Shown here: piece after piece, positions 6,318 to 54,470 of the stretch | Layout of the letters: each line of letters starts with the position of its first letter | Position numbering within the stretch: position 1 is the first letter of the stretch | NCBI GenBank assembly: GCA_043798985.1 | Contig: JAZDOE010000023.1 | Coordinates: 69,626 to 125,264 of the forward strand | Direction: 5' to 3' | DNA length: 55,639 nucleotides | From: Candidatus Falkowbacteria bacterium | GTDB lineage: Bacteria; Patescibacteriota; Patescibacteriia; UBA11705; JACRDX01 | The notes under the pieces: generated by a model | Seen by the model: only the letters and a program-made list of their open reading frames with translations | Told to the model about the DNA's origin: nothing | The model's database searches: none | Program-made: the position numbers and the translations under genes

Positions 6318-6737
6318 TTACGACGCATCCAGCGCATCATTCAGCAACGCGTCTGCCAATTTATTGTCCTCGCGATAAACGTGCTTGTAAATCACTTTTT
6401 TAAACTGCTGCTGCAAATTGTGAATTTTCAAAAATTGCAAAGCCAAATCCTGATTTTTCACTTTATACTCGCCATTCAATTGCCGCACAACCAACTCGCT
6501 GTCCAAATGAAACTCCAACTCCTCACCGCCCAGCTCTTTTGCTTTTTGCAATGCCAAAACAACTGCCTGATATTCTGCCTGATTGTTCGTCGTAGCGCCA
6601 ATACATTTTCCTTCTTTGTAAATAACTTTACCCCGCCCTGGCGGGGTTCCGTTTTCCTCAATCACCACGCCGATCGCAGCTGGCCCCGGATTCCCTCTTG
6701 CCCCACCATCCGTATGTATTAAAAACTTTTTATTCAT
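6318..6737 (-). CDS. rnhA: Ribonuclease HI family protein
   Basis: HTDGGARGNPGPAAIG, TNNQAEY, LDSELVVRQ, HVYREDNKLAD. Confidence 0.92.
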   Translation of the reverse strand: MNKKFLIHTDGGARGNPGPAAIGVVIEENGTPPGRGKVIYKEGKCIGATTNNQAEYQAVVLALQKAKELGGEELEFHLDSELVVRQLNGEYKVKNQDLALQFLKIHNLQQQFKKVIYKHVYREDNKLADALLNDALDAS

Positions 6738-6740
6738 AGT

Positions 6741-6855
6741 AAAATTCGAATATCGAAATACGAAACAAATTAGAAATCAGAATGTTCCAATATTGAAACA
6801 TTGTGATTTAGTGCTTCGAATTTGTTTAGAACTTCGAGCTTCGTGCTTCGGATTT
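6741..6855. repeat. 7-nt-periodic hairpin repeat; overlaps recJ stop and encodes its last residues
   Basis: aaattcgaatatcgaaatacgaaacaaat...tttgtttagaacttcgagcttcgtgcttcggattt; quasi-palindromic. Confidence 0.85.
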
Positions 6856-8574
6856 AATGTCAACTACTTTATATTGTATTTCGCTCGCGCCATTCCACAC
6901 GTTCAGCCCAGCCTCAACCACTGCATCCACAATATCGCCAATCCGCAGTTTTGACAATTGCTCAACATTGCTAAAACAAATCAGACGATAAATAAACGAA
7001 TGATTTGGCTCGCAGACAAACATTTGCAAATATTTTCCATCCTTGCCAACAACTTTAGTGCCAACAATTTCCAAATTTTTTACCAAAAATACTGGCGCAC
7101 GATTTCCCTCGCCAAATGGTTCAAAATAATCAAGCATTCCAAGAAGATTTTGTTTCAAATTCAAAAGTTCGGCGGCCGCGTCAATTTCCAAAATCGGTTC
7201 TGCGCTTGTTGGCGCCACTTTTGCCAAATGTTCGTGCAATTCATCTGCTAATTTTTCAATCGTTGCGTCAGCTTTCAACGTAAATCCGCACGCGCCACTA
7301 TGCCCGCCCAGTCTGCAAAAATAATTTTCAAAAAGTCTGAACGTTTCAACAACATTGACCGACCCAGCTTGCCCCTTTGGGGTTCCGCGAACCGAACCGA
7401 CGACGTTTCCATTGACCATCGTAGCAACAACAGCCGGCTTTGAAAAACTTTCCGCCAGCTTTCCGGCGACCAATCCGCAAACTCCGATTTCCCATTTTTC
7501 GCTGTAAACAAAATAAATATTTCTGTCCCCTATTTCACCAACCTGCGACTTGGCTTCTTTTAAAATTCTTTCGGTCAATTGCTGGCGTTGAGAATTTAAC
7601 TTGTGCAATTCGCAACCGATTTTATCAGCCTCTTCTCCGTCTTCTGTCACCAACAATTTGAACGCCTGATTCGCGTGATTCATCCTGCCCGCGGCGTTTA
7701 GCCGCGGCCCGATTTGAAAACCAATTGTCGCGACGCTTATTGATTCAATGTCAGCGCCAATGAGTTTTAAAAGTTTTTGCAAACCAAGCCATTGCGTTTG
7801 TTTTAAAACCAAAACTCCATATTTTGCCAAAACCCGATTCTCATCCAAAAGCGGCATGCAATCTGCCACTGTCCCGATCGCAACTAAATCCAGCAACCAC
7901 TTTTCCAACCCCGCCACTCCGCCATATTGTTGCAGAGACGTTTCATGAAACGTCTCTACGGCCTGCCGCAATATCGCCTGCGCCAATTTATATGCAACGC
8001 CCACTCCCGCCAAATCGCGAAACGGATAATTTTTGTCAAACTTAGGGTTGATGATTGCCAATGCCCGCGGCGATTTGGCGGGCGGTTCATGATGGTCGGT
8101 GACAATAACATCAACACCGTTTTGTTCCAAAAAATTTATCTCTTCAAAATTTGAAATTCCGCAATCAACAGTAATCAACAACGAATATTTTTTCGCCACA
8201 AAATCCGCTGCTGTATTCATATTCAAGCCATAGCCTTCTTGCTCTCTGCTTGGAATAAAAACTTCAACGCGACCACCAAGGATCGTTAAAACTTTATACA
8301 ACACAGCTGCCGCAGTCACTCCGTCCGCATCATAATCTCCATGGATTACAATTGATTCTTTATTTTCAATTGCCAACAAAATTCTAGCGACCGCGACGTT
8401 CATGTCCTTAAACAAAAAAGGATCATGCAATTTTGAATAATCCGGATGAAAAAATTTCTTTGCCGTTGCTCTATCAAAAATTCCGCGGTTAAATAACAAC
8501 TGGTTTAGCTCGGATGAATATCCGAGCTTTTCCGCGATATCCGCTGGCACTTGTGGTTTTAATTTCCATTCCAT
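6826..8574 (-). CDS. recJ: Single-stranded-DNA exonuclease RecJ
   Basis: HGDYDADG, LITVDCG, VTDHHEP, LAGVGVAYKL, GTVADCMPL, GPRLNAAGR, GGHSGACG, EPFGEGN. Confidence 0.95.
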   Translation of the reverse strand: MEWKLKPQVPADIAEKLGYSSELNQLLFNRGIFDRATAKKFFHPDYSKLHDPFLFKDMNVAVARILLAIENKESIVIHGDYDADGVTAAAVLYKVLTILGGRVEVFIPSREQEGYGLNMNTAADFVAKKYSLLITVDCGISNFEEINFLEQNGVDVIVTDHHEPPAKSPRALAIINPKFDKNYPFRDLAGVGVAYKLAQAILRQAVETFHETSLQQYGGVAGLEKWLLDLVAIGTVADCMPLLDENRVLAKYGVLVLKQTQWLGLQKLLKLIGADIESISVATIGFQIGPRLNAAGRMNHANQAFKLLVTEDGEEADKIGCELHKLNSQRQQLTERILKEAKSQVGEIGDRNIYFVYSEKWEIGVCGLVAGKLAESFSKPAVVATMVNGNVVGSVRGTPKGQAGSVNVVETFRLFENYFCRLGGHSGACGFTLKADATIEKLADELHEHLAKVAPTSAEPILEIDAAAELLNLKQNLLGMLDYFEPFGEGNRAPVFLVKNLEIVGTKVVGKDGKYLQMFVCEPNHSFIYRLICFSNVEQLSKLRIGDIVDAVVEAGLNVWNGASEIQYKVVDIKSEARSSKF

Positions 8575-8623
8575 AGTTATTACATTTTATCACATTAAAT
8601 TTTTTTTTGTAACCCCGTTTTCC

Positions 8624-8653
8624 TGTAGAGACGAGATATATCTCGTCTCTACA
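8624..8653. repeat. GTAG-tagged perfect 30-bp palindrome
   Basis: tgtagagacgagata|tatctcgtctctaca; related copy inside recJ at 7934-7957. Confidence 0.85.
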
Positions 8654-8765
8654 TATATAAATACCATTTCAAAAACCCTTCGCAAAATTGAGGGGTGTGT
8701 ATAAATGCACCCCGTCATTCACCCGCCAAGAGCTCACGCACTTTGGCGGGTTGATTGAAACAATC

Positions 8766-8796
8766 AAAAAACCGCGGAATTAATTTAATCCCGCGG
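8766..8796 (-). terminator. Intrinsic terminator after the 8816 gene
   Basis: ccgcgg...ccgcgg stem followed by a T tract on the minus strand; a second hairpin acccgccaa...ttggcgggt at 8721-8751. Confidence 0.55.
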
Positions 8797-9626: not shown

Positions 9627-11495
9627 CTACCGTTTCATCACCGCCAAATAAGCATCCGGTGGGATATTAACCCGTCCACGCCCCATTTCCATCATTTTCT
9701 TTTTTCCCTTTTTCTGCTTTTCCAAAAGCTTGGCGCGTCGTGTCCAATCACCACCATACAACTTTGCTGTCACGTCTTTTCGCAATGCCGAAATCCTTTC
9801 CGACGCCAGCACTTTGCCACCAACCATTGCCTGAATTTTAATCACAAACTGATGCTTTGAAATCTTATCTTTCAATATTCCAACGATCTTTTTGCCAATT
9901 TGAAACGCCATGTCGCGGTAAATAATCAGGGCAAACGCCTCAGCCGGCTCCTCGGCAATGAGCATGTCCATTTTTATCAAATCAGCTTTTGCGTATTTGT
10001 AAAAATCATAGTTCATTGACGCGTAGCCAGAACTGACGGTTTTCAATTTGTCGTGAAAATCAACGATCAACATTGAAAGCGGAATGCGATAATGCAACAA
10101 CGCGCGCGTTGCCTCAAGATATTCAGTATTCAAATATTCGCCGCGCATTTCCTGCGTCAACTGCATTACCGCGCCCAAATATTCTTTTGGTGTGACGATA
10201 TCAACGGTCATAATCGGCTCTTCCATGTGATCAATCTGCGACGGGTCTGGAAACTCATTCGGATTTTTTATAATGTATTCAACGTCTGACAAAATCTGAT
10301 TTTTTTTCAAATTCGGCGGAAATTTATTTCCTTTTTTCAAAGCAACTTTATACGCCACGCTCGGCACTGTCACAATAATCGCCAGATTAAATTCCCTGCG
10401 TAATCTTTCCTGAAAAATTTCCAGATGCAACAAACCGAGAAAGCCACAGCGAAAACCAAATCCCAAAACAGGAGAACTTTCCGGCTCATAAATCAATGCC
10501 GCGTCATTCAATTTCAACTTGGCAATCGCCTCGCGCAATTCATTATATTCATTCCCCTCTTCGCAAAAAATTCCAGCGTACACCATTGGTTTTACTTCTT
10601 TGTATCCGGGCAACGGCAAAATTTCGGATTTCGAATTTGGAATTTGTTTCGGATTTAGTGCTTCGGATTTGATAAGCGTATCTCCAACTCTACATTTTTC
10701 AATATCCTTCAACCCTGTGACGACATAGCCAATATCTCCGGCTGACAATTTGCCGGTTGAAAATTGTTTTGGTTTTAAAATGCCGCAATCTAAAACTTCG
10801 CCGCGCTCGCTCGCGCCAATCATGCAAATTTTATCGCCCTTTTTTAGTTGTCCATCCATCAATCTGACGTATGCAACGACGCCTTTGTACTCGTCGTAAA
10901 AAGAATCAAAAATCAACGCGCGCAACGGCTTTGCCGTGTCAGTTTTCGGCGCAGGCACTTTTTCAACTATTGAACACAAAATTTGTTCAACGCCCGCGCC
11001 TGTCTTTGCCGAGCACAATAAAATTTCATCTTCTCGGCATCCAACCAATCCCACAATTTCTCGCTTTGTCCTTTCAACGTCAGCCGCAGGCAAGTCAATT
11101 TTATTTATCACCGGAATAATTTCCAAACCCTGTTCAATCGCCAAATACAGGTTTGCCAAAGTCTGCGCCTGAACACCCTGCGTCGCGTCAACCAACAGGA
11201 TCGCGCCCTCAACCGCTGCCAAGGATCGCGAAACTTCGTACGAAAAATCCACGTGGCCCGGAGTATCAATCAAATTCAGAACATATTGTTCATTGCCAAC
11301 TTTATAAGCCATGGTTGCAGGCGTCAATTTAATCGTAATGCCGCGCTCGCGCTCCAAATCCATTGAATCCAAAATTTGATTTTTCATTTCACGTTTATCA
11401 ACCGTGCCAGTCAATTCCAAAAGCCGGTCAGCCAACGTTGATTTGCCATGGTCAATATGCGCGATAATGCAAAAATTCCGGATATTTGAAGACAT
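9627..11495 (-). CDS. lepA: Elongation factor 4 (LepA)
   Basis: NFCIIAHIDHGKSTLADR, ERERGITIK, DTPGHVDF, GFRCGFLGLLH, RKDVTAKLYGGD. Confidence 0.98.
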   Translation of the reverse strand: MSSNIRNFCIIAHIDHGKSTLADRLLELTGTVDKREMKNQILDSMDLERERGITIKLTPATMAYKVGNEQYVLNLIDTPGHVDFSYEVSRSLAAVEGAILLVDATQGVQAQTLANLYLAIEQGLEIIPVINKIDLPAADVERTKREIVGLVGCREDEILLCSAKTGAGVEQILCSIVEKVPAPKTDTAKPLRALIFDSFYDEYKGVVAYVRLMDGQLKKGDKICMIGASERGEVLDCGILKPKQFSTGKLSAGDIGYVVTGLKDIEKCRVGDTLIKSEALNPKQIPNSKSEILPLPGYKEVKPMVYAGIFCEEGNEYNELREAIAKLKLNDAALIYEPESSPVLGFGFRCGFLGLLHLEIFQERLRREFNLAIIVTVPSVAYKVALKKGNKFPPNLKKNQILSDVEYIIKNPNEFPDPSQIDHMEEPIMTVDIVTPKEYLGAVMQLTQEMRGEYLNTEYLEATRALLHYRIPLSMLIVDFHDKLKTVSSGYASMNYDFYKYAKADLIKMDMLIAEEPAEAFALIIYRDMAFQIGKKIVGILKDKISKHQFVIKIQAMVGGKVLASERISALRKDVTAKLYGGDWTRRAKLLEKQKKGKKKMMEMGRGRVNIPPDAYLAVMKR

Positions 11496-11547
11496 AAATA
11501 TAAGCTAACGTCATCTTAGCATTTTTTGTTTTTTATTTCAACGCCAT

Positions 11548-11583
11548 TGTCATTCCGACCTCTTGCAAAGAGGGAGGAATCCC
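11548..11583. repeat. TGTCATTCCGAC-type REP-like palindrome, partial
   Basis: tgtcattccgacctcttgcaaagagggaggaatccc; same 5' tag as the 4720 element. Confidence 0.6.
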
Positions 11584-11597
11584 TTGTAAACGCATCT

Positions 11598-12553: not shown

Positions 12554-12673
12554 AAATTTTATTTTTAAATGATATCTATTCTCATTTTATCAAAATTATA
12601 GCCAAAACAAAAACCGCGCCATTCTATCCGTCATTGCGAGCAAGTAGAACGAGCGCGGCAAGCTCACCAATTC

Positions 12674-13291
12674 TTATTTTTTCTTCGCCTTTTTTTCTTT
12701 TTTCTCTTTCTTTACCGCAATTTTCTCTGTTTTCTCAACCGGTTTTTCAACCGATTTCTTTTCAGCCTTTTTCTCAACCTTGACCGTTGGTTCCGCGCCC
12801 AAGGCGCGTCCGCCTATGGCGGAAACTTTTTTCAATTCGACTTTTGCTGGCGCAACTTTCACAGGAGACAAAATTGATAAAATTTTATCCAACTTTGAAA
12901 TTATCAAATCAACCTGCCCCTTTGAAATTCCAACGCCTGCGCTCGGCGTCGCCTCGCGCTTAAATCCACCTCTATCGCTGCCAAAACTTTTCGGCGCATA
13001 GCTAGAACCGCCGCCGAAGCTCTTTGGCGCGTAATCTGATCCACTACCCTGCGCTTTAAAACAGCTACTGCAAAAAACAGGGCGATCGCCGGTCGGTCTG
13101 AACGGCACCTCACATGACTGTCCGCATTTTTCGCAAACAGCTGGAAACATTGGTCGATCTTCACGATTTCCGCCAAAATCTCTACCGCCGCCAAAGCTTT
13201 TGCCACCACTTCGACCACCAAAATCGCGGCCACCACCACCAAAACTCTTGCCACCACGGCCACCACCACCGAATTTGTTAAAACTACCCAT
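12674..13291 (-). CDS. CxxC-x17-CxxC Zn-ribbon protein with Gly/Arg-rich N-terminus and Lys-rich tail
   Basis: MFPAVCEKCGQSCEVPFRPTGDRPVFCSSCF; FGGGG/RGG repeats; KKEKKEKKAKKK. Confidence 0.85.
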   Translation of the reverse strand: MGSFNKFGGGGRGGKSFGGGGRDFGGRSGGKSFGGGRDFGGNREDRPMFPAVCEKCGQSCEVPFRPTGDRPVFCSSCFKAQGSGSDYAPKSFGGGSSYAPKSFGSDRGGFKREATPSAGVGISKGQVDLIISKLDKILSILSPVKVAPAKVELKKVSAIGGRALGAEPTVKVEKKAEKKSVEKPVEKTEKIAVKKEKKEKKAKKK

Positions 13292-14908: not shown

Positions 14909-16014
14909 ATTGATTTGGCGATTTGCAATTCTTCATTCGTTGGAATCGCCAAAACGCGCGCCTTAATTGGCAATCCTCGCGCAATCAATTTGCGCACATC
15001 AGCATTGCGTTCCCCAATTCCGGCCGTAAAAACAATCGCATCAACTTTTCCCAAAATCCCTGCGTACGCGCAAATATATTTTTTTATTCTGTAAACAAAC
15101 ATTCGCAACGCCAACTTACAATTTTCTTTTTCTTTTTGCGAAAACGCTCGGACAACTTTATATCCCGCGACATTATAACCAGCGCCAACCAACACATCGC
15201 GCAAATCTTTAAACCCTGAAACTCCGAGCCAACCTGATTCATTATTAAACATTGAATCAACCTGCTCTGCTGAAAAACCATTTTTCACCAAAAACAATCC
15301 TATCGCAGGATCAAGATCGCCGCAACGTGTTCCCATCATCAAGCCTTCCAGCGGCGTAAAACCCATTGAAGTATCAATGGCTTTGCCATTTTTTATTGCG
15401 GTTATACTGCACCCGCTACCTAAATGGCAAGTAATCAAATTAACTTTGTTCAACGGTTGGCGCAATTTTTTCGCCGCTTGATTAGCAACATATTCATGCG
15501 ATAAACCGTGAAAACCGTATTTTCGTAAACCAAACTTTTTATAAATTTTTTCAGGCAAAGCATAACGAAACGCAAAATCCGGTAAAGTTTTGTAAAACAT
15601 TGTGTCAAAGCACGCGACTTGTTTTGCTTTTGGCAACAGTTTTAACAACGCGCTGACGCACAACAATGCGGCCGGATTATGCAATGGCGCCAACTTGTTA
15701 TATTTCGCAACCGCTTGAACAACTTTTTTGTTCAACAAAGTTGGCGCGACAAATTCAGCGCCGCCGTGCACGATTCTGTGCCCAACTTTTTTGATTTTCT
15801 CAATTGGCACGGCGGCTTTATGCAGCAAAGAAAAAACAAGCTTTAATGCTTGTTCATGATTTTCAACTTTAACCAATTCCTTTTTATTACCAAAAACAAC
15901 AAACGAGCCATTCAGCCCTATTTTCTCCACAATCCCATCATTCAGCTCGCGCAACTTTTCATCAAACAATTTGAATTTCAAGCTGGAACTTCCGGCGTTG
16001 ATTATTAAAGTCAT
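14905..16014 (-). CDS. ackA: Acetate kinase
   Basis: INAGSSSLKF, GHRIVHGG, LAPLHNP, FDTMF, YGFHGLSH, CHLGSGCS, DTSMGFTPLEG, FTAGIGE, PTNEE. Confidence 0.96.
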   Translation of the reverse strand: MTLIINAGSSSLKFKLFDEKLRELNDGIVEKIGLNGSFVVFGNKKELVKVENHEQALKLVFSLLHKAAVPIEKIKKVGHRIVHGGAEFVAPTLLNKKVVQAVAKYNKLAPLHNPAALLCVSALLKLLPKAKQVACFDTMFYKTLPDFAFRYALPEKIYKKFGLRKYGFHGLSHEYVANQAAKKLRQPLNKVNLITCHLGSGCSITAIKNGKAIDTSMGFTPLEGLMMGTRCGDLDPAIGLFLVKNGFSAEQVDSMFNNESGWLGVSGFKDLRDVLVGAGYNVAGYKVVRAFSQKEKENCKLALRMFVYRIKKYICAYAGILGKVDAIVFTAGIGERNADVRKLIARGLPIKARVLAIPTNEELQIAKSI

Positions 16015-21696: not shown

Positions 21697-21700
21697 AGCT

Positions 21701-21840
21701 AAATTCGAAATCCGAAATACGAAATACTAAACAAATCCCAAATCCGACCACGCCTGCCGGCGGGCAGGAATCAGAATGTTTCAAACATTGGAAAATTCAA
21801 ATTTCGTGCTTGTTTCGAGCTTCGGATTTCGTGCTTCGTA
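21701..21840. repeat. 7-nt-periodic hairpin repeat with a nested CCTGCC...GGCAGG palindrome (21753-21768)
   Basis: aaattcgaaatccgaaatacgaaatactaaacaaat...cctgccggcgggcagg...ttgtttcgagcttcggatttcgtgcttcg. Confidence 0.85.
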
Positions 21841-21847
21841 CTTTATT

Positions 21848-31070: not shown

Positions 31071-31072
31071 TA

Positions 31073-32479: not shown

Positions 32480-32492
32480 TAGAGAGTGCTAA
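32466..32492. promoter_or_regulatory. CIRCE element (HrcA operator)
   Basis: Perfect TTAGCACTC-N9-GAGTGCTAA. Confidence 0.97.
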
Positions 32493-32514
32493 TTATCAAA
32501 ACGTTTGCGCCTTT

Positions 32515-39914: not shown

Positions 39915-40910
39915 TTAAAAATTAAAAATTTTCTTACTGATAATCCATTGCGCGACTGTCTGCCAATGTCTTTTTATTGCCGTTCGCGCGGTGCAAATCA
40001 TCCAATAATCAACTTCATATCCCTTTAATTTGTCTCGCGCGGACTGCGCTTCGTCGGAAAACCAAAATTCCTTAAAATCTTTTAGCTCGCTAATATTGCC
40101 CATTATAATGTTATCCATCACGGATGGATAAATATCGCCCTTTGGGTCAAGATAAAAAAAGTCTTGGCCAGAATAACTTGGTAATGGCGCGCGCCGTCCT
40201 TTAATAATATCAATTAAACCATTTATAAAATACGCGCGCGCCCAATTTTTAGGATTAAATCCTTGAACAAACTTTTTGTTCAACTCAACTAATGCGCTGG
40301 CTAATTTCTGCTTGGCGGCTGGCAACTTATTTTTTACCCCGCCGAAATAAAAGTCAGAACTTTGTGCCAAAGCCATGGTAAAACCAATTCCTAAATTTTT
40401 AGAAAACTCAAAAAGTTTATTTAAGTCCTTATAATTATCGCCTGTCATTGTGAACGCGATTTTAACTCTTTTCCCACCCAATAGGGCTTTGGCAAATATT
40501 AAACTATCCAAAACTTTGTGCCAGCCGCCATCTATTCCTCGTATTTTTTCATGCATTTTTCCAAAACCATCAACAGAAATATTTAATTCAATATTTGGCG
40601 CGGCTTCCAAAATTCTAGGCAACTGCTTTTTTATCACATCAACCAAAAAGCCGTTTGACGAAATAACAAGCCGCGCTCTTGGGGCGGCTCGCCTAATTTC
40701 CTCTATTATTTCAACCAAATCAGAACGCAAAAACGGCTCGCCGCCAGAAATATTTATATCCCTTAAACTGGTCGGCAACCTTTTGTACGTTACAGCAGGC
40801 ATTTCTGGAAAATCTTTGATTTTCCAGATGCCGCACATTGTGCAACGCGAATTACAGCGATATGTCACCGCAACAACCGCGTCAACTGGCATTTTTATTT
40901 TTAGTTGCAT
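39915..40910 (-). CDS. Radical SAM protein with degenerate SPASM/twitch region
   Basis: CNSRCTMC, ISGGEP, ISSNG, SVDG; start at 40910 (7 nt after TGcTATAAT) or 40892. Confidence 0.88.
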   Translation of the reverse strand: MQLKIKMPVDAVVAVTYRCNSRCTMCGIWKIKDFPEMPAVTYKRLPTSLRDINISGGEPFLRSDLVEIIEEIRRAAPRARLVISSNGFLVDVIKKQLPRILEAAPNIELNISVDGFGKMHEKIRGIDGGWHKVLDSLIFAKALLGGKRVKIAFTMTGDNYKDLNKLFEFSKNLGIGFTMALAQSSDFYFGGVKNKLPAAKQKLASALVELNKKFVQGFNPKNWARAYFINGLIDIIKGRRAPLPSYSGQDFFYLDPKGDIYPSVMDNIIMGNISELKDFKEFWFSDEAQSARDKLKGYEVDYWMICTARTAIKRHWQTVAQWIISKKIFNF

Positions 40911-43900: not shown

Positions 43901-45648
43901 GTATCACCGTCCGCGCACTTGCAGTCCTCGTTGAACGAACCATCGCAATCTTCGTCAACCATCGCGACATCGCACAGTTCGACTCCTGCCGCTGTACACT
44001 TGTACTCGCAGCCATTCAGCGGGTCCTCGTCCAAATCCACGAAACCCGCATCACAGGTCGCGACCATGCACTTGCCGAAGAAACACATCGGCTGGACTTT
44101 GTACAGAGAACAAATGTTCCCGCACTTGCCGCAGTTGTCCACGTCGTCAAACAGACCGAAATCTTCATCCGCTTCGCCGTCGCAATCATCATCCACTCCG
44201 TTGCATTTTTCCGCGCCAGTAAACCAGCACGGATATTCGCAACCAGGAGAGTACTGGTCAATGTCATACCAACCTGCATTGCATTCGACGAGCTCACACT
44301 CGCCATCCACACACACCATGCCCGCGTTCGGCTCTCCACATATCACTCCGCAAAAACCGCAGTTGTCCACGTCGGTCAGCAGGTCAAAATCTTCGTCCTT
44401 CTGTCCGTCGCAGTCATTGTCGCTGTAGTCGCAAACTTCCATCTGCGACTTGATCTCGCCGACACACTGTTTGCTTCCATCTGCCAGACAGAACGAAACG
44501 CCCATCTGGCACTCGCCAACCTGCGAACCGCAGATCGCGCCAACCACGCACGGACAACCCTCGTCAACTTCGCTGTCGCAATCCTCGTCCGCAAATCCGT
44601 CGCAGACTTCTGGGCCCACGAGTTGGCACTCGCACCCATCAGCCGCGTCTTCATTCGCGTCCGCAAATCCGACATCGCACTTCTCGGCAACGCAGTTTCC
44701 GTAGAAACACATTGCCTTGGCGTTCGCGAACTCGCACTTGTTGCCGCACTGGCCGCAGTTGTTCACATCAGTCAACAAGTTGAAATCCTCGTCAACCAAC
44801 CCATCGCAGTCATTGTCCAGACCGTCGCACTTCTCAATGCCAGCCCACGTGGGCAAGCACTGGAACTCGCAACCATCGCTCTCAAAACCATTGAGATCAA
44901 CGAAAGACGACTGGCATGCGTACACGCAATTGCCAGCAACGCAAGTTGCTGACGCGTTTGGCGTCGCGCACTTGTTGCCGCACTCGCCGCAGTTGTCCAC
45001 GTCCTTCTTCAGGTTGAACGCCTCGTCACTGTAACCGTCGCAATCATTGTCCTTGCCGTCACAAACCTCGGGCGTCGGCGAAATTCCGCCGACACAGTCG
45101 GCCCACTTGTTGTCCGCGCCGCAAGTCTGCTCGCCCGGGTGACACTCACCTTTGTTCAAATTCTGCGACAAACCGCAGAAGCGAACTTCGCCAGCCGTGC
45201 ACTCGGTCTTGACCGGCGGCTGTTCGCCATTGTTCCCGTTGGCCGAACCATTGTTGTTGCCGCCATTGTTTCCACCGGACGAACCGTTGTTGCCAGCCGG
45301 CACCCAGTTCGCATCCTGACCAGCAGTGCTTCCGCACCGGCCGTTCACGCAAACCAGCCCACCGGCCCCGTACGTTTCGTAGCAGTTGAAAGCCGAGATG
45401 CACTCGTCCTTGCAGCTGCCGTCGTCCATGCACTTGCCGGTCGCGCAGTCGTCGTCCGAAAGGCATCCGACCTGCCGAACCACGTCGCCCGCCAGGTCAT
45501 CTTTGCCCCACGAGGAATCCTCGGGGCAACCAGATGCGAACACCACCATCAGCACGCACCACACCATTGTCACGAGTTTCTTCATGGCACCACCTCCATT
45601 GTTTTTGCCATTGCCCAACCAGAAAAACGAACCGTTTCTCTTCTTCAT
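40996..45648 (-). CDS. Giant Cys-rich repeat lipoprotein with 18 MopE-like CDGxDNDCDG motifs
   Basis: FASGC lipobox after ATG 45585; six ~214-aa units, each with three C[DN]..D[NDE][DN]CD motifs and two NCGxCG-type modules. Confidence 0.9.
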   Translation of the reverse strand: MKKRNGSFFWLGNGKNNGGGAMKKLVTMVWCVLMVVFASGCPEDSSWGKDDLAGDVVRQVGCLSDDDCATGKCMDDGSCKDECISAFNCYETYGAGGLVCVNGRCGSTAGQDANWVPAGNNGSSGGNNGGNNNGSANGNNGEQPPVKTECTAGEVRFCGLSQNLNKGECHPGEQTCGADNKWADCVGGISPTPEVCDGKDNDCDGYSDEAFNLKKDVDNCGECGNKCATPNASATCVAGNCVYACQSSFVDLNGFESDGCEFQCLPTWAGIEKCDGLDNDCDGLVDEDFNLLTDVNNCGQCGNKCEFANAKAMCFYGNCVAEKCDVGFADANEDAADGCECQLVGPEVCDGFADEDCDSEVDEGCPCVVGAICGSQVGECQMGVSFCLADGSKQCVGEIKSQMEVCDYSDNDCDGQKDEDFDLLTDVDNCGFCGVICGEPNAGMVCVDGECELVECNAGWYDIDQYSPGCEYPCWFTGAEKCNGVDDDCDGEADEDFGLFDDVDNCGKCGNICSLYKVQPMCFFGKCMVATCDAGFVDLDEDPLNGCEYKCTAAGVELCDVAMVDEDCDGSFNEDCKCADGDTKSVGTDKGVCQKCTQTCVDGQWSDCVGGVSATPEVCDYSDNDCDGSVDEDFSLMADPVNCGWCGHVCTFSNANALCVAGLCKMGGCTGFYHDVNNDPADGCEYACVPSGVEKCNGVDDDCDGQVDEDFNFFNDLNNCGQCGKVCNLWQVSNNVCFFGKCLVDGCNTGYVDLDGQPENGCEYKCTTTGAEVCDIAMVDEDCDGSANEGCGCVDGETKTGGTDEGECVACTQTCVGGKWGLCLGGKTPAPELCNNADDDCDGSVDEDFNTQTDTANCGWCGHSCSFANAQAMCVDGECKLGACDKLFYDADKDAVNGCEYLCLNAGVEKCNGVDDNCDGLVDEGFDLSSEVSNCGQCGNVCSLYKAFVSCDDGECIVSWCQPGFYDLDGQPENGCEYKCTPSGVELCDAGMKDEDCDGSFNEDCKCKDEEFMLVGSDEGECEPCLQFCLGGEWTDCVGGVGAVPELCDSKDNDCDGAVDNGFNMQTDPANCGWCGNECWFPRAQALCGNGKCLMGACDALFYDADKDASNGCEYLCLNAGVEKCNGVDDDCDGLVDEDFNVQSDSQNCGQCGNVCSLDGAVAKCEKGKCAVDSCLPNRFDLDGVAANGCEYVCVFAGPEDCDASGKDEDCDGSFNEGCSCKNGETKTNGTDEGLCKVCTQTCVAGKWGECLGGKSAVPEICDGFDNDCDEQIDEDFNLAIDPLNCGKCGNKCSFANASAACVNGVCQLVACDAMYYNVDGIAANGCEYGPCVVQGGEQCDGFDNDCDGKVDEDFAFASDPSHCGGCDTNCALLPHVATVGCSAGECTVLSCDSSYYDLNKVADDGCEYDCPFKIPGKEVCGDGLDNDCDGKVDNGCPLNLLACDFVCPAGYVPVVWWGGAPGYSWEGATNNSTWSASAPQVCERGENLTIPAESGWIDFNCKNGNLYQWTPSVVASCYYTGGGQLTYSVRVGVIDPGGEGEIVFVNVCL

Positions 45649-45730
45649 TTTGTCCTCCTTGTATCTTGTCTCGAGTTGTCAAAAAACACCAGAAATTTGC
45701 CTGCAAAACAGGCAGTTTCCAGAACAGGTA

Positions 45731-45759
45731 ATTTTAGCGCGTTCAATTCATTTTGTCAA
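45731..45759 (-). promoter_or_regulatory. Sigma70 promoter of the 1550-aa gene
   Basis: TTGACA(45754-45759)-17-TAAAAT(45731-45736). Confidence 0.75.
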
Positions 45760-45774
45760 GCACAAGTCCGTATG

Positions 45775-45845
45775 TAAATTTACACAAGCTCCGCCGCGCT
45801 GGCAAGGTAAAAGAAAAAGCCCCATGCATGTTAGCATAGGGCACC
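45775..45845. repeat. Terminator plus conserved tail, copy 1
   Basis: taaatttacacaa-c.ccgccg-...-ggtaaaa-aaaagcccc-atgc..gcat..gg.gc, also at 47137-47200. Confidence 0.7.
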
Positions 45846-45885
45846 AAGATTGTTTTTCGTCCCTCTCGGTTTAGGACAGCTGGTT

Positions 45886-46998
45886 TTACCAGCAGGATTT
45901 TTCGAACTTGACCTTTCCGTGGATACCGGTGTCTTCCATCTCGTAGTCGGCCGGGGTACAGAGAATTTGCACTTTGAGGTAATCGCCCCAGATGCCATTT
46001 TCAGCATTGAAGCAATTGAACTCAAAGGCCATCTCTCCCCACAGGCACAGCTCGCCGAACGGAATCTTGAACTCCGTGCCGTTCGCAACGTCTGCGGCCG
46101 TGAATGCCCACCAGATACGAACAGATGTGTAATCCGTCGGACAGGTGATCATGCACGTCGCGCCGTCAAACGGCTGGATTGCGACGCCATTGTCAGCCAC
46201 GACTTCCGGCGACTCGGCATCAGCCGCTGCCGAACTGGCATCAACTTCTGCGACCACATCGGTCTCTTCCACACTGGCATCCTGCGACGCGACATCGCCC
46301 TCCTCGAGCTTGTCCTCCGTAGCCGCATCGGCGAAGGAGGATCCGCTGTCACCCCCGGCAACCACATCCTCGGTCGGCTGTGGCGCAACGTCTTCGGTCT
46401 GCGTGATCACGTCCGGTTCGGGCTGCGGTTCAGGCTCGTCGTTCGGCGGATTGTCGTTCCCACCGACTTTGACGCAAAAGCCGTCCTCGCAGATGTACCC
46501 GACGCCGCAATGGCACTCGGGCTCCGGCTGGTTGTCTTCCTGCGTCGCGATTTCCAGCGGATAGCGCTGTTGCTCCAGCGTATCGCCAGAGAAATCCGCC
46601 GAAACATCCGGCTCCGGCATAACTGGAACGCACTCTCCTTCGTTGTTGCAGACGAATCCGTCCGCACATCCGTCGTCATCTTCACACTCTGGCGGCAGTT
46701 GCGTTGCGTCCGCGTACTGCTTACATCCCCACGGCCCAGTGCAGTCGCCTTCGCTGTACGCGTCCTCTGTGTCGTCAGACACATCGTCTTCCGGCTTCGG
46801 CGGGTTGCTCGTGTCATCCTCATGGTTCTCGCCGAACACGTCCTCCTCCATGGACGAATCCACGTACACGTCCTTCGTACAGCCGCTCGTGAAGCATGCC
46901 GCGACCGCCAGCGCCAGCATGGCCAACACCATCGCACCAACGCTCCATGCCTGCGCAACCTGCTCCTGCTCAAACCCGCACTCATTCATCGTCTTCAT
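45886..46998 (-). CDS. Acidic Cys-containing surface (lipo)protein
   Basis: AGAGGTG SD; hydrophobic stretch ending FTSGC; D/E-rich linkers; small Cys modules; C-terminal domain similar to that of the 1550-aa protein. Confidence 0.85.
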   Translation of the reverse strand: MKTMNECGFEQEQVAQAWSVGAMVLAMLALAVAACFTSGCTKDVYVDSSMEEDVFGENHEDDTSNPPKPEDDVSDDTEDAYSEGDCTGPWGCKQYADATQLPPECEDDDGCADGFVCNNEGECVPVMPEPDVSADFSGDTLEQQRYPLEIATQEDNQPEPECHCGVGYICEDGFCVKVGGNDNPPNDEPEPQPEPDVITQTEDVAPQPTEDVVAGGDSGSSFADAATEDKLEEGDVASQDASVEETDVVAEVDASSAAADAESPEVVADNGVAIQPFDGATCMITCPTDYTSVRIWWAFTAADVANGTEFKIPFGELCLWGEMAFEFNCFNAENGIWGDYLKVQILCTPADYEMEDTGIHGKVKFEKSCW

Positions 46999-47067
46999 GG
47001 CTCACCTCTCTAATTGTTTGATTTTCAAGTTTCAACATTATCGTAGGCACACACCTACGAACAAATC

Positions 47068-47096
47068 ATTATATCATATCCTAACAAGAAAGTCAA
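47068..47096 (-). promoter_or_regulatory. Sigma70 promoter of the 45886-46998 gene
   Basis: TTGACT(47091-47096)-17-TATAAT(47068-47073) with extended TG; leader hairpin tcgtagg...cctacga at 47041-47060. Confidence 0.8.
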
Positions 47097-47136
47097 CTGC
47101 CGCGCCTTAATATTATCTAACTTTACACACATTCTC

Positions 47137-47200
47137 TAAATTTACACAAACCCCGCCGTTGACAGGGTAAAAAAAGCCCCAAATGCGTTGCATTCGGAGC
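47137..47200. repeat. Terminator plus conserved tail, copy 2
   Basis: Imperfect direct repeat of 45775-45845, in the same position relative to the upstream gene. Confidence 0.7.
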
Positions 47201-47240
47201 TTGCCAGGAATATTATTGTCCATCCTGACATGGACTCGGT

Positions 47241-48083
47241 CTAGAGACAGTAGTTGTACACATGGCCGCGATACGGGTCGAACTTGACGTAGCTCGCCGC
47301 CTTGCCGCTGACCATCACCGACGCAGGGGTCTTCGCCGCTCCGATCCACGTGACCTGGCCAGCGGTTTTGCCTGCGTGCTTGCCCACGGTGAGATCGACC
47401 ACGACCTCACAGCCGATCGCGTAGGTGGACAGATAGCCGCTGAAACAGCCATCGCTCCCGATTACGAGATCCTGTGCCGAACCCCACTTGCTTGGGTCGC
47501 TCGAGGTCGCCTCACTCCACGACATCTGTCCGAAGTCTGCCGAAATTTCCGCGGCCGTGAGCGCGTAGCAGGTCTTGACCAGCTTGCCGGTCGTCATCGC
47601 GGCCGGAGTCGGAGTCGTGCCTGTGCCAGTCGGGGTCGTCCCCGGCGTCACCTTGTGGCACTGCCCATCCCCATCGAACTGCGGCGCGCTGCACGCGTAG
47701 CTCTCGTCGATGATCGTACAGGAATCGTAGGACTTCGCCTGCTCTCCCGTGTACGGATCAAACTCGAACACCACGTAGCAGCCCGGAACGCACAGGTTCG
47801 TTGGCGAGCCGAGGTCATCGCTGGCCTGCTTGTTGCTTGCGCAGTACCAGCCCATGCCGAGAGACGCGCAGTCCATGTTCATGTCCGTCTCGTCTGCGTC
47901 ATCCGTGACCACGCCGCACTCGGTCTTGCTCACCATCCCAACGTACGCAGGGGCGTCATCGCCCTCCACGTTCACGACGGTCGGCTCGCGGTCGTCGAAC
48001 ACCGAAACTTCCCGCTCGCACCCGAACACCGCCAGCGCCATCACAACCATCATCGAAACCAGCAAAACGATCGTCTTCTTCAT
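47241..48083 (-). CDS. GC-rich lipoprotein, two domains joined by a Thr/Pro linker
   Basis: GGAGGTG SD; MKKTIVLL...AVFGC; Cys-containing N-domain; TPGTTPTGTGTTPTP linker; ends YNYCL. Confidence 0.85.
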   Translation of the reverse strand: MKKTIVLLVSMMVVMALAVFGCEREVSVFDDREPTVVNVEGDDAPAYVGMVSKTECGVVTDDADETDMNMDCASLGMGWYCASNKQASDDLGSPTNLCVPGCYVVFEFDPYTGEQAKSYDSCTIIDESYACSAPQFDGDGQCHKVTPGTTPTGTGTTPTPAAMTTGKLVKTCYALTAAEISADFGQMSWSEATSSDPSKWGSAQDLVIGSDGCFSGYLSTYAIGCEVVVDLTVGKHAGKTAGQVTWIGAAKTPASVMVSGKAASYVKFDPYRGHVYNYCL

Positions 48084-48223
48084 GGCATCACCTCCAAAAA
48101 GTTAATTGCCAATGTTCACTCTGTCTCGATCCTTGACACCCGTCAAGAACCCAGAAAAGTGGGGAAACCCGTGTTAGCGTTTCCCCGTTTTTGGCCATGC
48201 CCCGTTGGGACACAGCCGTCGCG

Positions 48224-48640
48224 CTACTTGTCGCGGATGTGCACCTCTGTCGTTGTGACCGAATCCACGACATAGTACGTGCAAGCGCCAAGTGCCACAG
48301 CCCCGCCGACGTATAGCGCGTAGTCCCAGAAACCCGCGTCCTTCGTCTCGGGCTGGACACTCTGCAACGGTGCAATCGGAGCTGCCGGCACATAGACGGT
48401 CATCTTGCCGCCATTTTCCATGACCATCTTCCCCTTGCCTGCCGGAGCGACGACCTGCACCACCCCCTTTGGGCAATCCAGCTCGTTCTTGGCGTTATCC
48501 TTGCACGTACAACCCGAGGGAACCTCGAGCAGTCCGCACATGACCACCGCCGTTCCGTTCACCGGAGCCTCCTGCGCCGTCACCACGGTCGCGAACATCA
48601 CTGCCACCGCCATCACAACCAACGCAACGATCTTTCTCAT
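48224..48640 (-). CDS. Small secreted protein with C-terminal hydrophobic helix
   Basis: GGAGGTG SD before ATG 48640; signal peptide ...VVTA|Q; four Cys in the soluble region; FWDYALYVGGAVALGACTYYV. Confidence 0.75.
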   Translation of the reverse strand: MRKIVALVVMAVAVMFATVVTAQEAPVNGTAVVMCGLLEVPSGCTCKDNAKNELDCPKGVVQVVAPAGKGKMVMENGGKMTVYVPAAPIAPLQSVQPETKDAGFWDYALYVGGAVALGACTYYVVDSVTTTEVHIRDK

Positions 48641-48835
48641 CTCACACCTCCAGTTGTCTGTTGTCCAAGTCAAAGATCAAACGCCCAACCTCGATTCACT
48701 TCATTATTGTCAGTATTAGTTCTGAAAAAATTCAGTATGACATTCGTAAATTCGTTGAAATGAATCCAGATTGGGCCCCTGTCAAATGTTACTGACAGGG
48801 TCCCGAGACACGACGATGTCGCGCCTCTTACTGCT

Positions 48836-49489
48836 CTACTGCACCGGAGTCGGTTCCCACCGGATGGTGACCCGTTCCTGCGGCGGTTCGGCCGCGGGCT
48901 GTGCGACCGGTGCCGGTTCAGGCGAAGCCACGACTGGTTCGGGTTGCGCAACCCTCGCCGCGTCCGCGTCTGCCTTCAGCGCCTCGGCCAACTTCTTGGC
49001 CTTCCGCGCCTCCGCCCGCGCCGCCTTGAGCTGCTTCTGCAGGTCAGTGACGACCTCGGCGTCGGCCTTGTCCGCGAGATCCGCCTTCAGCGCCTTGACT
49101 GATCCAGTGAACTCGGTTCGCAGCGTCGCAAGGTCGTTCTTGCTCGCCCTCTTGGTCAGTTCTGCGTCCACGTATTCCGTGTTCGCCTTCTTCGCCAGCT
49201 CCTCGTCCACGTATTCCTCGCCCGCCTTGACCGTCTCGGCCAGAGACTTGAGCTCCTCTGTCCCTGCCTTCCGTGACAGCTCGTCCGTCGTCTTCGCCGC
49301 CAGCTCCTCCAGCGCCGCCTGGTCAGCCTTGCCGACCACCGCGCCTCTGAGCTCCTCCACGCCAGAACGCGTTTCCTCCACTCCGGCCAAGAGCGGCGAA
49401 GCAACCTTGGCGTACCCGAAGTAGCCGCCGACACCGACCAGCACGATCAACACGATCACCCACCAGAACCGACGCAAGAAATTCTTCAT
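48836..49489 (-). CDS. Membrane-anchored coiled-coil protein with KA(D/N/G/S) repeats
   Basis: GGAGGTG SD before ATG 49489; N-terminal TM; repeats such as GKADQAALEEL, KKANTEYVDAEL, DKADAEVV; Pro/Ala-rich tail. Confidence 0.85.
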   Translation of the reverse strand: MKNFLRRFWWVIVLIVLVGVGGYFGYAKVASPLLAGVEETRSGVEELRGAVVGKADQAALEELAAKTTDELSRKAGTEELKSLAETVKAGEEYVDEELAKKANTEYVDAELTKRASKNDLATLRTEFTGSVKALKADLADKADAEVVTDLQKQLKAARAEARKAKKLAEALKADADAARVAQPEPVVASPEPAPVAQPAAEPPQERVTIRWEPTPVQ

Positions 49490-49569
49490 GGCAATCACCT
49501 CCATTGTTTGTTGCCGTTGTCAAAAACCATGGACAGACTTTGGCAATCGCCTAATCTGACCAACAAACC

Positions 49570-49598
49570 ATCTTATCAAATTATTCTGACCCTGTCAA
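49570..49598 (-). promoter_or_regulatory. Sigma70 promoter of the 49489 gene
   Basis: TTGACA(49593-49598)-17-TAAGAT(49570-49575) with extended TG. Confidence 0.7.
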
Positions 49599-49640
49599 GT
49601 ATAGGGCGTCAATAATAGCATTTTAAGGCTTAATTTAAAC

Positions 49641-49665
49641 AAAAAAGCCCCGCCAGCGGCGGGGC
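49641..49665 (-). terminator. Intrinsic terminator after the wzz-like operon
   Basis: gccccgcc-agc-ggcggggc followed by a T tract on the minus strand. Confidence 0.75.
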
Positions 49666-52773: not shown

Positions 52774-53250
52774 ATGGAAATACTGAATAAATCAGCAACG
52801 TTCAACTACGAAGTCTTGGATAAATACCAAGCTGGTTTAGTTTTGCTCGGCCACGAAGTCAAAGCAATTAAAAACGGCCAAATGTCTTTAAAGGGCAGCT
52901 ACATCGCTATAAAAAATAGTCCGACGCCAGAAGCTTATTTGATAAAATCATCAGTTTCTCTTTATAAAAAAGCAGGACCAATGCCAGATTATAATCCAGA
53001 ACGACCGCGTAAACTGCTACTCACACGGCAAGAAATCAATAAACTGTTCGCTAAACTCAAACAAAAAGACTCCACCTCGGCATGCCGAAGGCGAGACGGG
53101 TTGACATTAATACCTCTTAGCGTGTATAATAAGCACAATCTCATTAAATTGGAATTTGCCTTAGTGTCTCCGAAAAAGAAATTTGACAAAAAAGAATCAA
53201 TAAAGAATCGCGAAATTGATCGGCAAATCCAAAGAGCATTAAAATTTTGA
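52774..53250 (+). CDS. smpB: SsrA-binding protein SmpB
   Basis: NKSATFNY, AGLVLLGHEVKAIK, RPRKLLL, GLTLIPL, KKFDKKESIK. Confidence 0.96.
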   Translation: MEILNKSATFNYEVLDKYQAGLVLLGHEVKAIKNGQMSLKGSYIAIKNSPTPEAYLIKSSVSLYKKAGPMPDYNPERPRKLLLTRQEINKLFAKLKQKDSTSACRRRDGLTLIPLSVYNKHNLIKLEFALVSPKKKFDKKESIKNREIDRQIQRALKF

Positions 53251-53360
53251 AATCCCAATTTTGAATTTTGATTGAATTTTGAAATCTGAATTTTGAAACA
53301 TTCAAACATTCGTGCATTCAACATTGATTCGAAATTCAAAATTCGAATTTCGAAATTTTC
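53245..53360. repeat. AT-rich 7-nt-periodic hairpin repeat between smpB and ssrA
   Basis: aattttgaattttgattgaattttgaa...aacattgattcgaaattcaaaattcgaattt; same subtype as 32325-32440. Confidence 0.8.
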
Positions 53361-53366
53361 CACTAC

Positions 53367-53793
53367 GGGGATGACTGGCTTTGACGAAAAGACCCTTAAC
53401 AACTTGGTCAGGACGAGGCGAGCTAACCTCGAAAAAATGGCTCAAATCAACAAGTGCAAACAAACTTGTAAACAATGTTCGGTCATTGTTCGCAATGCCG
53501 ACATTTGTATCTGCTGTCGCTTAAATATATCCGACGGCCATCGGCCCGCTTTTGCTCGCAATTCAATCTTATTGAATGAAGCGTACACCTGCCTACAGGC
53601 AGGCAAGCCGGTGCCATTTCGCGAGATAGGTTATAAAAATTTCCCTACTTTATAACTGAAACAAAACAGGGATAGGTTTCGCGGTTTTCTGCTTGTCTCA
53701 AACCCGCGTCACCAAATTTTGAGACAAGCTATTCCTGTATAACCAATTTGCTAAACTTTTTGGACGCGGGTTCGATTCCCGCCATCTCCACCA
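53367..53793 (+). ncRNA. ssrA: tmRNA
   Basis: Acceptor stem GGGGATG/CATCTCC with G3-U wobble, T arm GCGGG-TTCGATT-CCCGC, 3' ACCA; tag ORF 53456-53524; follows smpB. Confidence 0.95.
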
Positions 53794-53796
53794 CTG

Positions 53797-53881
53797 CTAC
53801 TAATTACAAATCACTACGAATACTACCAATTACAAATTAATTCGCAGATACGTAGCATTCGAATGATTCGCAGGTTTGTAA
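53797..53881. repeat. 85-bp repeat, right arm of the inverted pair
   Basis: Begins 3 nt after the tmRNA CCA; inverted copy of 52666-52750. Confidence 0.85.
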
Positions 53882-53885
53882 CCGT

Positions 53886-54470
53886 ATGAGAAAATCTTAC
53901 AAATTCGGAAAACGAAAGCGAAACGAACCGGAAATAAAATATCGCGGTAATTTGCAAATTATTGCGCCAATACTTTTTGTCATTGATGAAACGGGCGCGT
54001 CTCTTGGACAAATGCCAACGCGGCAAGCGTTAACAATTGCCGACGAGCGAGGCTATGATTTGGTAGAAGTATCACCAAACGCGCAGCCGCCGGTGGCAAA
54101 ACTTTTAAACCTTGGCAGTTTTCAATATCACCAAACAAAACTTGCCAAGCAGCAAAAGAAAAACCAAAAATCCACAGAAACAAAAGGAATTCGTCTGTCT
54201 ATGAAAATCGCGCAAGGCGACATGGAAACAAAAGTGCGACAAGCTGAAAAATTCCTAGAAAAAGGAAACAAAGCGAAAATAGAACTAATCATGCGTGGCC
54301 GAGAATTACAAAAAATTGATCTGGGCAAAGAGATAATGAAAAAATTTTTGGCGCAGTTGCAAGTTCCATACAGCGTGGAGCAAGAAACAAGCAAACAAGG
54401 AAATAAATTATTTATAATAATCATGCCGAAATCCCTACCCGCGGGGCAGGCAGGAGCAGATGACAATTAA
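53886..54470 (+). CDS. infC: Translation initiation factor IF-3
   Basis: YDLVEVSPNAQPPVAKL, KGIRL, GNKAKI..MRGRE; upstream of rpmI-rplT. Confidence 0.95.
   Translation: MRKSYKFGKRKRNEPEIKYRGNLQIIAPILFVIDETGASLGQMPTRQALTIADERGYDLVEVSPNAQPPVAKLLNLGSFQYHQTKLAKQQKKNQKSTETKGIRLSMKIAQGDMETKVRQAEKFLEKGNKAKIELIMRGRELQKIDLGKEIMKKFLAQLQVPYSVEQETSKQGNKLFIIIMPKSLPAGQAGADDN

Follow-up and report, generated by a model that had tools for sequence, protein, structure and literature searches.

Odd peptides in housekeeping proteins of a Candidatus Falkowbacteria bacterium as probable translated copies of several families of miniature repeats

The stretch analysed here, referred to as the window, comprises 55,639 nucleotides (nt) of a Candidatus Falkowbacteria bacterium, an ultra-small groundwater organism (contig JAZDOE010000023.1, assembly GCA_043798985.1) and carries mostly a minus-strand run of housekeeping genes, several of which encode short odd peptides that an earlier sequence-only reading had taken for palindromic elements inserted in frame. 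The GC content is ~42%, with a GC island of 55-59% at 41-50 kb, and a tmRNA and a single tRNA-Ser are also present; in protein searches, the nearest relatives of DnaK, RecJ, and SmpB belonged to Candidatus Falkowbacteria and other Patescibacteria. Orthologues were taken from protein searches, from 80 metagenomic RecJ neighbourhoods recovered by an alignment-based scan, and from contigs of close relatives. Among these, L001 is syntenic with the window over 19.5-41 kb, and further relative contigs were L003, L004, L085 and L087 (smpB-infC), and L357 (lepA-recJ-rnhA). Four metagenome runs were also consulted; their contigs were sparse and distant at the RnhA, RecJ, LepA, and DnaK sites, and no run was found to cover the dnaK stretch.

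Alignment to close and distant orthologues revealed clean insertions at six of the eight claimed sites, in RnhA, RecJ, LepA, DnaK, SmpB, and IF3, and all six keep the reading frame, as had been proposed; at three other sites where odd peptides had been noted (a 24-nt palindrome in RecJ, the GrpE N-terminal tail, and the DnaK C-terminal tail) no indel could be demonstrated. In RnhA, a 15-nt insertion (6636-6650, minus strand) adds five amino acids (aa), GTPPG, at a beta-hairpin turn, where the DNA forms the perfect 18-nt hairpin ACCCCGCC-CT-GGCGGGGT (6630-6647, minus strand). None of 30 relatives has these residues, nor does the closer L357 or any solved RNase H structure compared (PDB 3u3g), and the GC content of the insert is 0.80, against 0.45 for the gene. 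Likewise, a 15-nt insertion in RecJ (7369-7383, minus strand; TPKGQ, +5 aa), containing the hairpin CCCCAAAGGGG(CAAG), is missing from 17/17 relatives and from L357, and its motif recurs as CCCCTAAGGGGCAAG in the DnaJ of L001, where it gives the 5-aa insertion PKGQV. Moreover, SmpB has gained 30 nt (53068-53097, plus strand; 10 aa, DSTSACRRRD), an imperfect hairpin around CGGCATGCCG located between a helix and the next strand, which all 15 relatives (two of them 91% identical) and the solved SmpB structures lack. At the C-terminus of IF3, 27 nt (54432-54458, plus strand; SLPAGQAGA, +9 aa) form an imperfect CCTaCCC-GCG-GGGcAGG hairpin of what we call the LPAGQAG family; the insert is absent in two close relatives, and homology stops before it in the best 150 representatives listed.

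Four further sites had been missed by the first reading, in CysRS, DnaJ, a zinc-finger protein, and a GHL15/FG-GAP protein. The CysRS copy is a 21-nt insertion (24123-24143, minus strand; 7 aa, APPGQDK) with a decayed hairpin of CCCCGCC..GGCGGGG type, absent in L001 and more intact in L003 (APPGQRGK). Alignment to solved homologues suggests that the insertion sites lie in loops, linkers, or tails; a structure model of SmpB, in which the insert loop has low confidence, agrees with this but is too weak (pLDDT 58) to carry weight. Inserted DNA has a GC content of 0.60-0.80, compared with 0.38-0.45 in the host genes.

In LepA, the inserted sequence (10620-10666, minus strand) corresponds to a single arm of an element built as a heptamer array (CGAAATN); its translation, (A)LNPKQIPNSKSEI, lengthens the domain linker by ~9 aa. 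Positions 10627-10666 are the exact 40-nt reverse complement of intergenic positions 30961-31000, which lie in an AT-rich heptamer-array hairpin of the grpE-dnaK spacer (30942-31072) resembling a donor for the LepA insert. Compared with L357 the protein is 9 aa longer, and at the left junction GAAGCA is common to target and element; the loop is shorter in 15/16 relatives, the exception being L017, with a different and longer insert. Sister copies of the array lie at 2020-2110, 6738-6825, 21697-21847, and 53251-53366, an intergenic CCTGCC-GGCG-GGCAGG hairpin is nested within the third of these (21753-21768), and heptamer-array elements reached a high summed depth in the metagenome runs. Furthermore, the grpE-dnaK spacer differs among relatives, with GTCAT hairpins in L001 (9895-10000), a long GC-rich nested hairpin in L003 (9715-10000), and the heptamer array in the window, so that three repeat families in one orthologous spacer indicate a rapid turnover of intergenic repeats.

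At least one insertion is recent. A drinking-water metagenome contig (run X3, 285 nt) that is 98% identical to smpB lacks exactly the 30 nt of the insert, which shows that the SmpB insertion happened recently, and the 40-nt identity with the intergenic copy suggests the same for LepA. The proposal of an active system is borne out as far as recency is concerned for SmpB and, less firmly, for LepA, but not as regards a common machinery or current activity, and other copies, in DnaJ and CysRS, have decayed. In the comparison with L001 (18 genes, indels of at least 5 aa), elements accounted for 2/2 window-specific and 2/3 L001-specific indels. Private inserts were also found in the RecJ of relatives, namely QIYQGSLTRPADTVE and ASPHPERPDVGE in P0122 (L357), TLRQAQGK and QSSGKAGG in P0130, and the heptamer-type SEIRNPKFEI in P0169, and the LepA of L017 likewise carries an insert of its own; consequently, the phenomenon is general in these lineages.

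One has to ask whether such peptides could be ordinary lineage-specific loops, with hairpins arising by chance where Gly, Ala, Pro, and Arg codons make the DNA GC-rich. The window does contain many GC-rich stretches that simply encode Ala/Gly/Arg, as in the strong hairpin at 28021-28061 in a conserved part of DnaJ, and the tails of DnaK and GrpE are hypervariable anyway. However, perfect GC-rich hairpins with a stem of at least 7 numbered 7 in 41 kb of coding sequence, against 2.5 in synonymous-codon shuffles, and those with a stem of at least 8 numbered 4, against 0.9; 0/100 shuffles reached the observed value in either case. In addition, the clean indels are confined to this lineage, and sequences of 22-40 nt recur exactly or nearly so in unrelated genes and genomes. 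This explanation is already contradicted at most sites, and we consider it very improbable.

One such widely recurring sequence is a 24-nt unit, CCTTCGACARGCTCAGGGCAGGCT (PSTSSGQA), also written CCTTCGACARGCTCAGGGCAGG(CT), which is not palindromic, contains no stop codon, and is open in 5/6 frames. Among species-representative genomes it was detected in at least 120 stretches from Acidobacteriota, Chloroflexota, Verrucomicrobiota, Bacteroidota, Pseudomonadota, Planctomycetota, and the Candidate Phyla Radiation (CPR), and 25 viral contigs also carry it. Copies stand alone, in 24-nt tandem arrays, within hairpin loops, or as inverted pairs, and in low-GC genomes the unit is read as PST(S/G)SGQ within a NUDIX protein, a methylase, an amino-acid kinase, and AlaRS, the last in two genomes that carry it at different sites. 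The preceding base is C in 116/123 copies, and the preceding triplet is GAC in 23/123, which may be the target or a part of the element. A literature search for the unit or its peptides found no description of either.

In the window, the unit occupies the DnaK lid as CCTTCGACAGGCTCAGGGCAGGTT (29268-29291, minus strand; PSTGSGQV, +8 aa), between Asp and Lys of the conserved SGD|KIP, and is missing from the 90%- and 87%-identical relatives. A decayed copy with two changes relative to that of DnaK (HSTGSWQG) lies in the G/F linker of DnaJ (28121-28144, minus strand), where L003 carries an intact unit and L001 a different double hairpin. Among 116 CPR DnaK proteins, the GD|K junction was filled in ten, by three elements, PST(S/G)SGQ, PSHEGGA(G/S), and LPAGQAG, the last being represented in L209 by a 21-nt palindrome of that family. 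On a maximum-likelihood tree the filled proteins are scattered, and the sisters P0027 and P0050 carry different elements; such scattered occupancy implies at least eight separate events. Between the window and the distant L004, 21/24 bases and 7/8 third codon positions of the DnaK insert agree, while in the host gene only 30% of third positions do, which is not ordinary synonymous divergence. The pattern that the earlier reading had named as speaking against it, distant orthologues sharing the peptides with ordinary synonymous divergence, is therefore not the one observed, either in these third positions or in the scattered occupancy on the DnaK tree.

In GrpE, the 24-nt unit appears in another frame (ALR..QAQG) in the N-terminal tail (31535-31588, minus strand), interrupted after CCCTTCGAC by a 33-nt hairpin, so that this site is a nested element. 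The composite folds at -28 kcal/mol (z = -2.5), and the surrounding tail is not alignable. Nearby, GATCGCTTCGCTACGCTCGCGATG (31490-31513, minus strand; EIASLRSR), 24 nt long, belongs to a hairpin repeat headed by GTCAT and aligns with native residues of relatives; it is identical at 24/24 positions in L040, within a RecJ open reading frame (ORF) but with the frame closed, and at 21/22 in L045, where it is intergenic, both being unrelated CPR contigs. Long intergenic hairpins headed by GTCATTGCGAG or GTCATTCC were also observed at 4662-4804, 11496-11597, and 12554-12673; they resemble NTS/SRM repeats, with no match to the published SRM pattern.

Another family consists of GTAG-tagged palindromes. 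The RecJ copy, GTAGAGACG-TTTCATGAAA-CGTCTCTgC (7932-7959, minus strand), is read as VETFHETSL and is perfect over 24 nt (7934-7957), for which our own arithmetic gives ~0.003 expected by chance per window. Its loop has the same length in relatives, including L357, which argues for a replacement or a refreshed old copy rather than a new indel. An intergenic 30-nt perfect palindrome of the same family, T-GTAGAGACG-AGATATATCT-CGTCTCTAC-A, lies at 8624-8653, so that the window holds two GTAGAGACG..CGTCTCTAC copies in 55.6 kb. Elsewhere, at least 119 stretches of viral contigs contain the GTAGAGACG-N10-CGTCTCTAC family, as do L085, L092, and L142; its members keep constant outer arms, and their inner arms vary by compensatory changes and so remain self-complementary.

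The remaining copies are GC-rich hairpins. The CCCCGCC type occurs in RnhA, CysRS, and the GHL15/FG-GAP protein, where the perfect 21-nt hairpin GGCCCCGCC-GTT-GGCGGGGCC (35239-35259, minus strand; GPAVGGA) has a GC content of 0.90 and a fold z of -4.6 and is equal in length in L001 and L003. The CCTGCC/LPAGQAG type is represented in IF3 and by the intergenic hairpin at 21753. As a specific family marker, CCCCGCC..GGCGGGG was rejected: it was found in more than 120 viral contig stretches, where the same hairpin is a common terminator, and in the window one copy of such GC-rich hairpins, at 49647-49665 and followed by a T-run, is a plain terminator. A candidate insert of 30 nt, a double mini-hairpin (TCCGCC-ATA-GGCGGA plus CGCGCC-TTG-GGCGCG), forms ten codons, SAIGGRALGA, in the tail of the zinc-finger protein (12794-12823, minus strand), with a fold z of -3.9 and a GC content of 0.77 against 0.48; no orthologue of this tail was found, and the same architecture makes a 10-aa insertion in the DnaJ of L001. 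Inserts of 30 nt, in SmpB and of this double type at both sites, thus amount to exactly ten codons. In the DnaK C-terminal tail, GC-rich AKASPGESA (29088-29114, minus strand) forms a weak hairpin; no relative was found, and the hypervariable tail leaves no insertion demonstrable. The 427-nt tmRNA also contains a hairpin, CCTGCC-TACA-GGCAGG (53586-53603), at which a related metagenome contig (run X4) shows clustered substitutions and small insertions, indicating that this helix is variable; the hairpin may be another inserted element.

Taken together, these observations suggest that the odd peptides are probably translated copies of non-autonomous miniature repeats, belonging to at least five unrelated families that are common to many bacteria: the 24-nt unit, the GTAG palindromes of 28 nt, the GC hairpins of 15-21 nt, the 30-nt inserts, and the AT-rich heptamer-array hairpins. 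That most peptides would have relatives elsewhere was a sound observation, since the repeat families recur both in the window and in other genomes, and the claim of several unrelated families was supported with the reservation that CCCCGCC..GGCGGGG and CCTGCC..GGCAGG are generic hairpins that also serve as terminators. The description of the inserted DNA as hairpins applies to RnhA, the RecJ palindrome, and the GrpE composite, which fold strongly, as do the GHL15 hairpin and the double hairpin; it applies poorly to the DnaK unit, SmpB, and IF3, which fold weakly, and the unit shared by DnaK and GrpE is no palindrome.

Copies are pasted into many places without target duplication, or copied there in a conversion-like manner. 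In essential genes, only stop-free copies that keep the frame in loops, linkers, or tails are observed, and these subsequently decay; selection would spare frame-neutral copies at tolerant positions. Some positions, such as the DnaK GD|K junction, the DnaJ G/F linker, and pre-existing hairpins, may be hot spots that are refilled and at which elements are swapped. Comparison of filled and empty alleles revealed no target-site duplication at DnaK, SmpB, IF3, or CysRS, and nesting was seen both in the GrpE unit and in the heptamer element at 21753. The lack of duplication, the hairpin form, the nesting, and the replacement in place point to an enzyme that recognises structure in single-stranded DNA; insertion or conversion would then take place on single-stranded hairpin-forming DNA, often at occupied sites, with a driver presumably acting in trans from outside the window. 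Pfam searches on 20 small or unassigned ORFs and inspection of the remaining ORFs by eye found no nuclease or transposase family, including RAYT and GIY-YIG, in the window, in agreement with the earlier statement that neither a transposase nor a RAYT is present. Candidate drivers are a GIY-YIG/Ssn-like nuclease (PMC11893778) or a RAYT/IS200-like Y1 transposase (PMC3733652), neither of which is singled out by our data.

Several results weigh against an interpretation in terms of mobile repeats. Neither the window nor the surroundings of the 24-nt unit in 120 copies yielded a mobilising gene: when the 2,757 ORFs of these 120 loci were clustered all against all, no neighbour recurred, and a small GIY-YIG gene lay within 8 kb at just 3/120 loci, near chance by our estimate. 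The DnaK, DnaJ, and CysRS sites are filled in both the window and L003, and the closer L001 lacks these copies, so that either repeated precise loss or repeated gain is needed. Simple insertion also fails as an explanation for the RecJ palindrome, GHL15, and GrpE EIASLRSR, which show no length change relative to relatives. Finally, the short GC hairpins are so generic that a common origin is not certain for them, real as each single insertion is.

In a serious rival, no dedicated machinery is involved, and template switching, microhomology-mediated ectopic copying, quasi-palindrome correction, and short-patch conversion generate the copies, perhaps from an imported DNA template, as these bacteria are competent and scavenge DNA; hot spots would be positions that offer microhomology and tolerate inserts well. 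That template switching can perfect quasi-palindromes is established as a route of mutation, and same-length replacement at the RecJ palindrome and GHL15, the GAAGCA shared at the LepA left junction, the absence of target duplications, the lack of a linked gene, and the different elements at one DnaK site in sister genomes would all be accommodated. On the other hand, nearly identical sequences of 22-28 nt occur across phyla with GC contents of 35-69%, which implies that the sequence itself is constrained, something that passive copying would not provide; most junctions lack usable microhomology, and GTAG palindromes with constant outer and variable inner arms resemble a protein recognition site. 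We therefore regard the enzyme-free route as unlikely, while treating it as the alternative to be reckoned with.

Selected cis-acting signals offer a different account, in which the inserts would be sites for a single-stranded DNA (ssDNA) nuclease modulating transformation (NTS/SsnA-like), intragenic pause or terminator hairpins, or functional linkers. In Neisseria, the SsnA/NTS hairpins are concentrated near genes and influence transformation (PMC11893778); here, the insert DNA is conserved above neutral expectation, and certain copies of these hairpins, such as the one at 49647-49665, act simply as terminators. Nevertheless, close relatives dispense with the inserts in the same essential genes, the DnaJ and CysRS copies decay in place, a single DnaK site accepts different elements, and the published SRM pattern is unmatched in the window, all of which make this account improbable. 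Returning to mobile miniature repeats, a bolder version would be that many bacterial phyla and their phages share an undescribed class of scarless "micro-cassettes" (CCTTCGACARGCTCAGGGCAGGCT, GTAGAGACG-N10-CGTCTCTAC, and GC hairpins of 15-30 nt), pasted at hairpins or occupied sites by a single-strand enzyme that recognises structure, and swapping at fixed hot spots within essential genes such as the DnaK GD|K junction; we put this forward tentatively, as a doubtful extension worth stating.

Other features of the window deserve mention in their own right. A palindrome of 19-21 nt, TTGAACAA-N5-TTGTTCAA, occurs five times within coding regions (15715-15735, 23962-23980, 33532-33552, 36256-36276, and 40263-40283), the copy at 23962 being a shorter variant, TGAACAAA-TTT-TTTGTTCA, and one of the five lying near a 3' end. 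Orthologous positions are kept for three copies in L001 and for one in L003, and the palindrome resembles a conserved regulatory site or operator of the glycan locus rather than a mobile element. Upstream of hrcA-grpE-dnaK, a canonical CIRCE-like inverted repeat, TTAGCACTC-N9-GAGTGCTAA (32464-32494), is ordinary heat-shock control. The dnaK-dnaJ spacer (28519-29016) is a hot spot for extra genes, with one 165-aa ORF of unknown family in the window, no ORF in L001, three ORFs in L003, and five genes, including a DUF559 endonuclease-like one, in L211. The GC-rich island (40996-49600) encodes a Cys-rich protein of 1550 aa, whose homologue in L001 has 1547 aa (with CPL1-like/MopE matches) and the same border, so that the island is older than the split between the window and L001. 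Beyond the tRNA-Ser (55296-55639) there is no credible ORF, and several perfect hairpins were found, including a 19-nt inverted repeat (55452-55540) and GTCCGCC-TTC-GGCGGAC (55586-55602); no Rfam family matched this segment, which may represent a gene for a structured RNA, truncated where the window stops.

If truly mobile, these sequences would lower the size limit of selfish DNA to 15-30 bases and explain a large share of indels in CPR housekeeping genes (4/5 of those of at least 5 residues in the 18 genes compared with L001); if the micro-cassette idea were true, no smaller mobile DNA units would be known, and much of the variation in loop length among CPR housekeeping proteins would stem from them as a main source. 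The inserts also confuse gene calling and create spurious ORFs (PFDKLRAG and SLRSR peptides), and they affect alignments and phylogenies built on the marker genes DnaK, LepA, IF3, and SmpB. In this context, a 24-nt unit that remains unchanged from Acidobacteriota to CPR and viral contigs is of interest, and the DnaK hot spot, where three element types alternate among close relatives, constitutes a natural experiment for finding the enzyme.

MITEs (miniature transposable elements of the inverted-repeat kind) have terminal inverted repeats matching an insertion sequence and are associated with target-site duplications. The elements described here are several-fold shorter and show no duplication at the four resolved sites. 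The QMITEs of Coxiella are small non-autonomous elements that can occur within ORFs in the reading frame and so extend the products by extra peptides (PMC5896051; reviewed in PMC10969869). Single-strand "peel and paste" elements of the IS200/IS605 type insert without duplication, 3' of a short conserved target word; duplication is likewise absent here, and the C that precedes the 24-nt unit in 116/123 copies may be such a target or a part of the element.

SsnA, a small GIY-YIG ssDNA nuclease, recognises short hairpin repeats termed NTS/SRM as single strands (Chenal et al., 2025, PMC11893778), and the likeness lies in short conserved hairpins spread over many phyla, the GTCAT-headed hairpins of the window, intergenic and in GrpE, being comparable. 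Membership in the SRM family was rejected, because the pattern HGTCWY..RNCYNB had 0 matches in the window against 0.1 in shuffles; furthermore, SsnA is not known to move its repeats, and genes resembling ssnA are absent from the window and do not consistently accompany the 24-nt unit.

Repetitive extragenic palindromic (REP) sequences, with GTAG- and CGTC-tagged families among them, have been described within genes, including replication and repair genes, in several species, the REP families being mostly extragenic and species- or genus-specific (Di Nocera et al., 2013, PMC3733652). The elements studied here resemble them in forming hairpins of 20-40 nt, some with terminal GTAG, in several families per genome and without target duplication, and differ in that no RAYT lies within the window and the arms recur across phyla. 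The GTAG tag itself is restricted to 7932-7959 and 8624-8653, the other families having none.

A literature search for in-frame palindromes in CPR found no paper. Rickettsia palindromic elements (RPE), reportedly described by Ogata et al. in 2000, are palindromes of ~100-150 bp that form Rickettsia-specific sequence families. They are discussed in two later studies (PMC3733652; PMC1779305). Like RPE, the elements of the window are dispersed palindromic repeats lying in frame in conserved genes of a reduced genome, at probable surface loops, in several families and without a linked transposase, and lineage-specific in-frame insertions are common to both, whereas the size and sequence family of RPE are not. 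The elements here measure 15-42 nt, their host belongs to the CPR instead of the Rickettsiales, one family is non-palindromic, the families span many phyla and viral contigs, and a single site can be common to several of them. The analogy with RPE and intragenic REP sequences drawn in the sequence-only reading was thus apt; its observation is partly confirmed and its interpretation partly supported, as real mini-elements of several families that resemble RPE and REP sequences.

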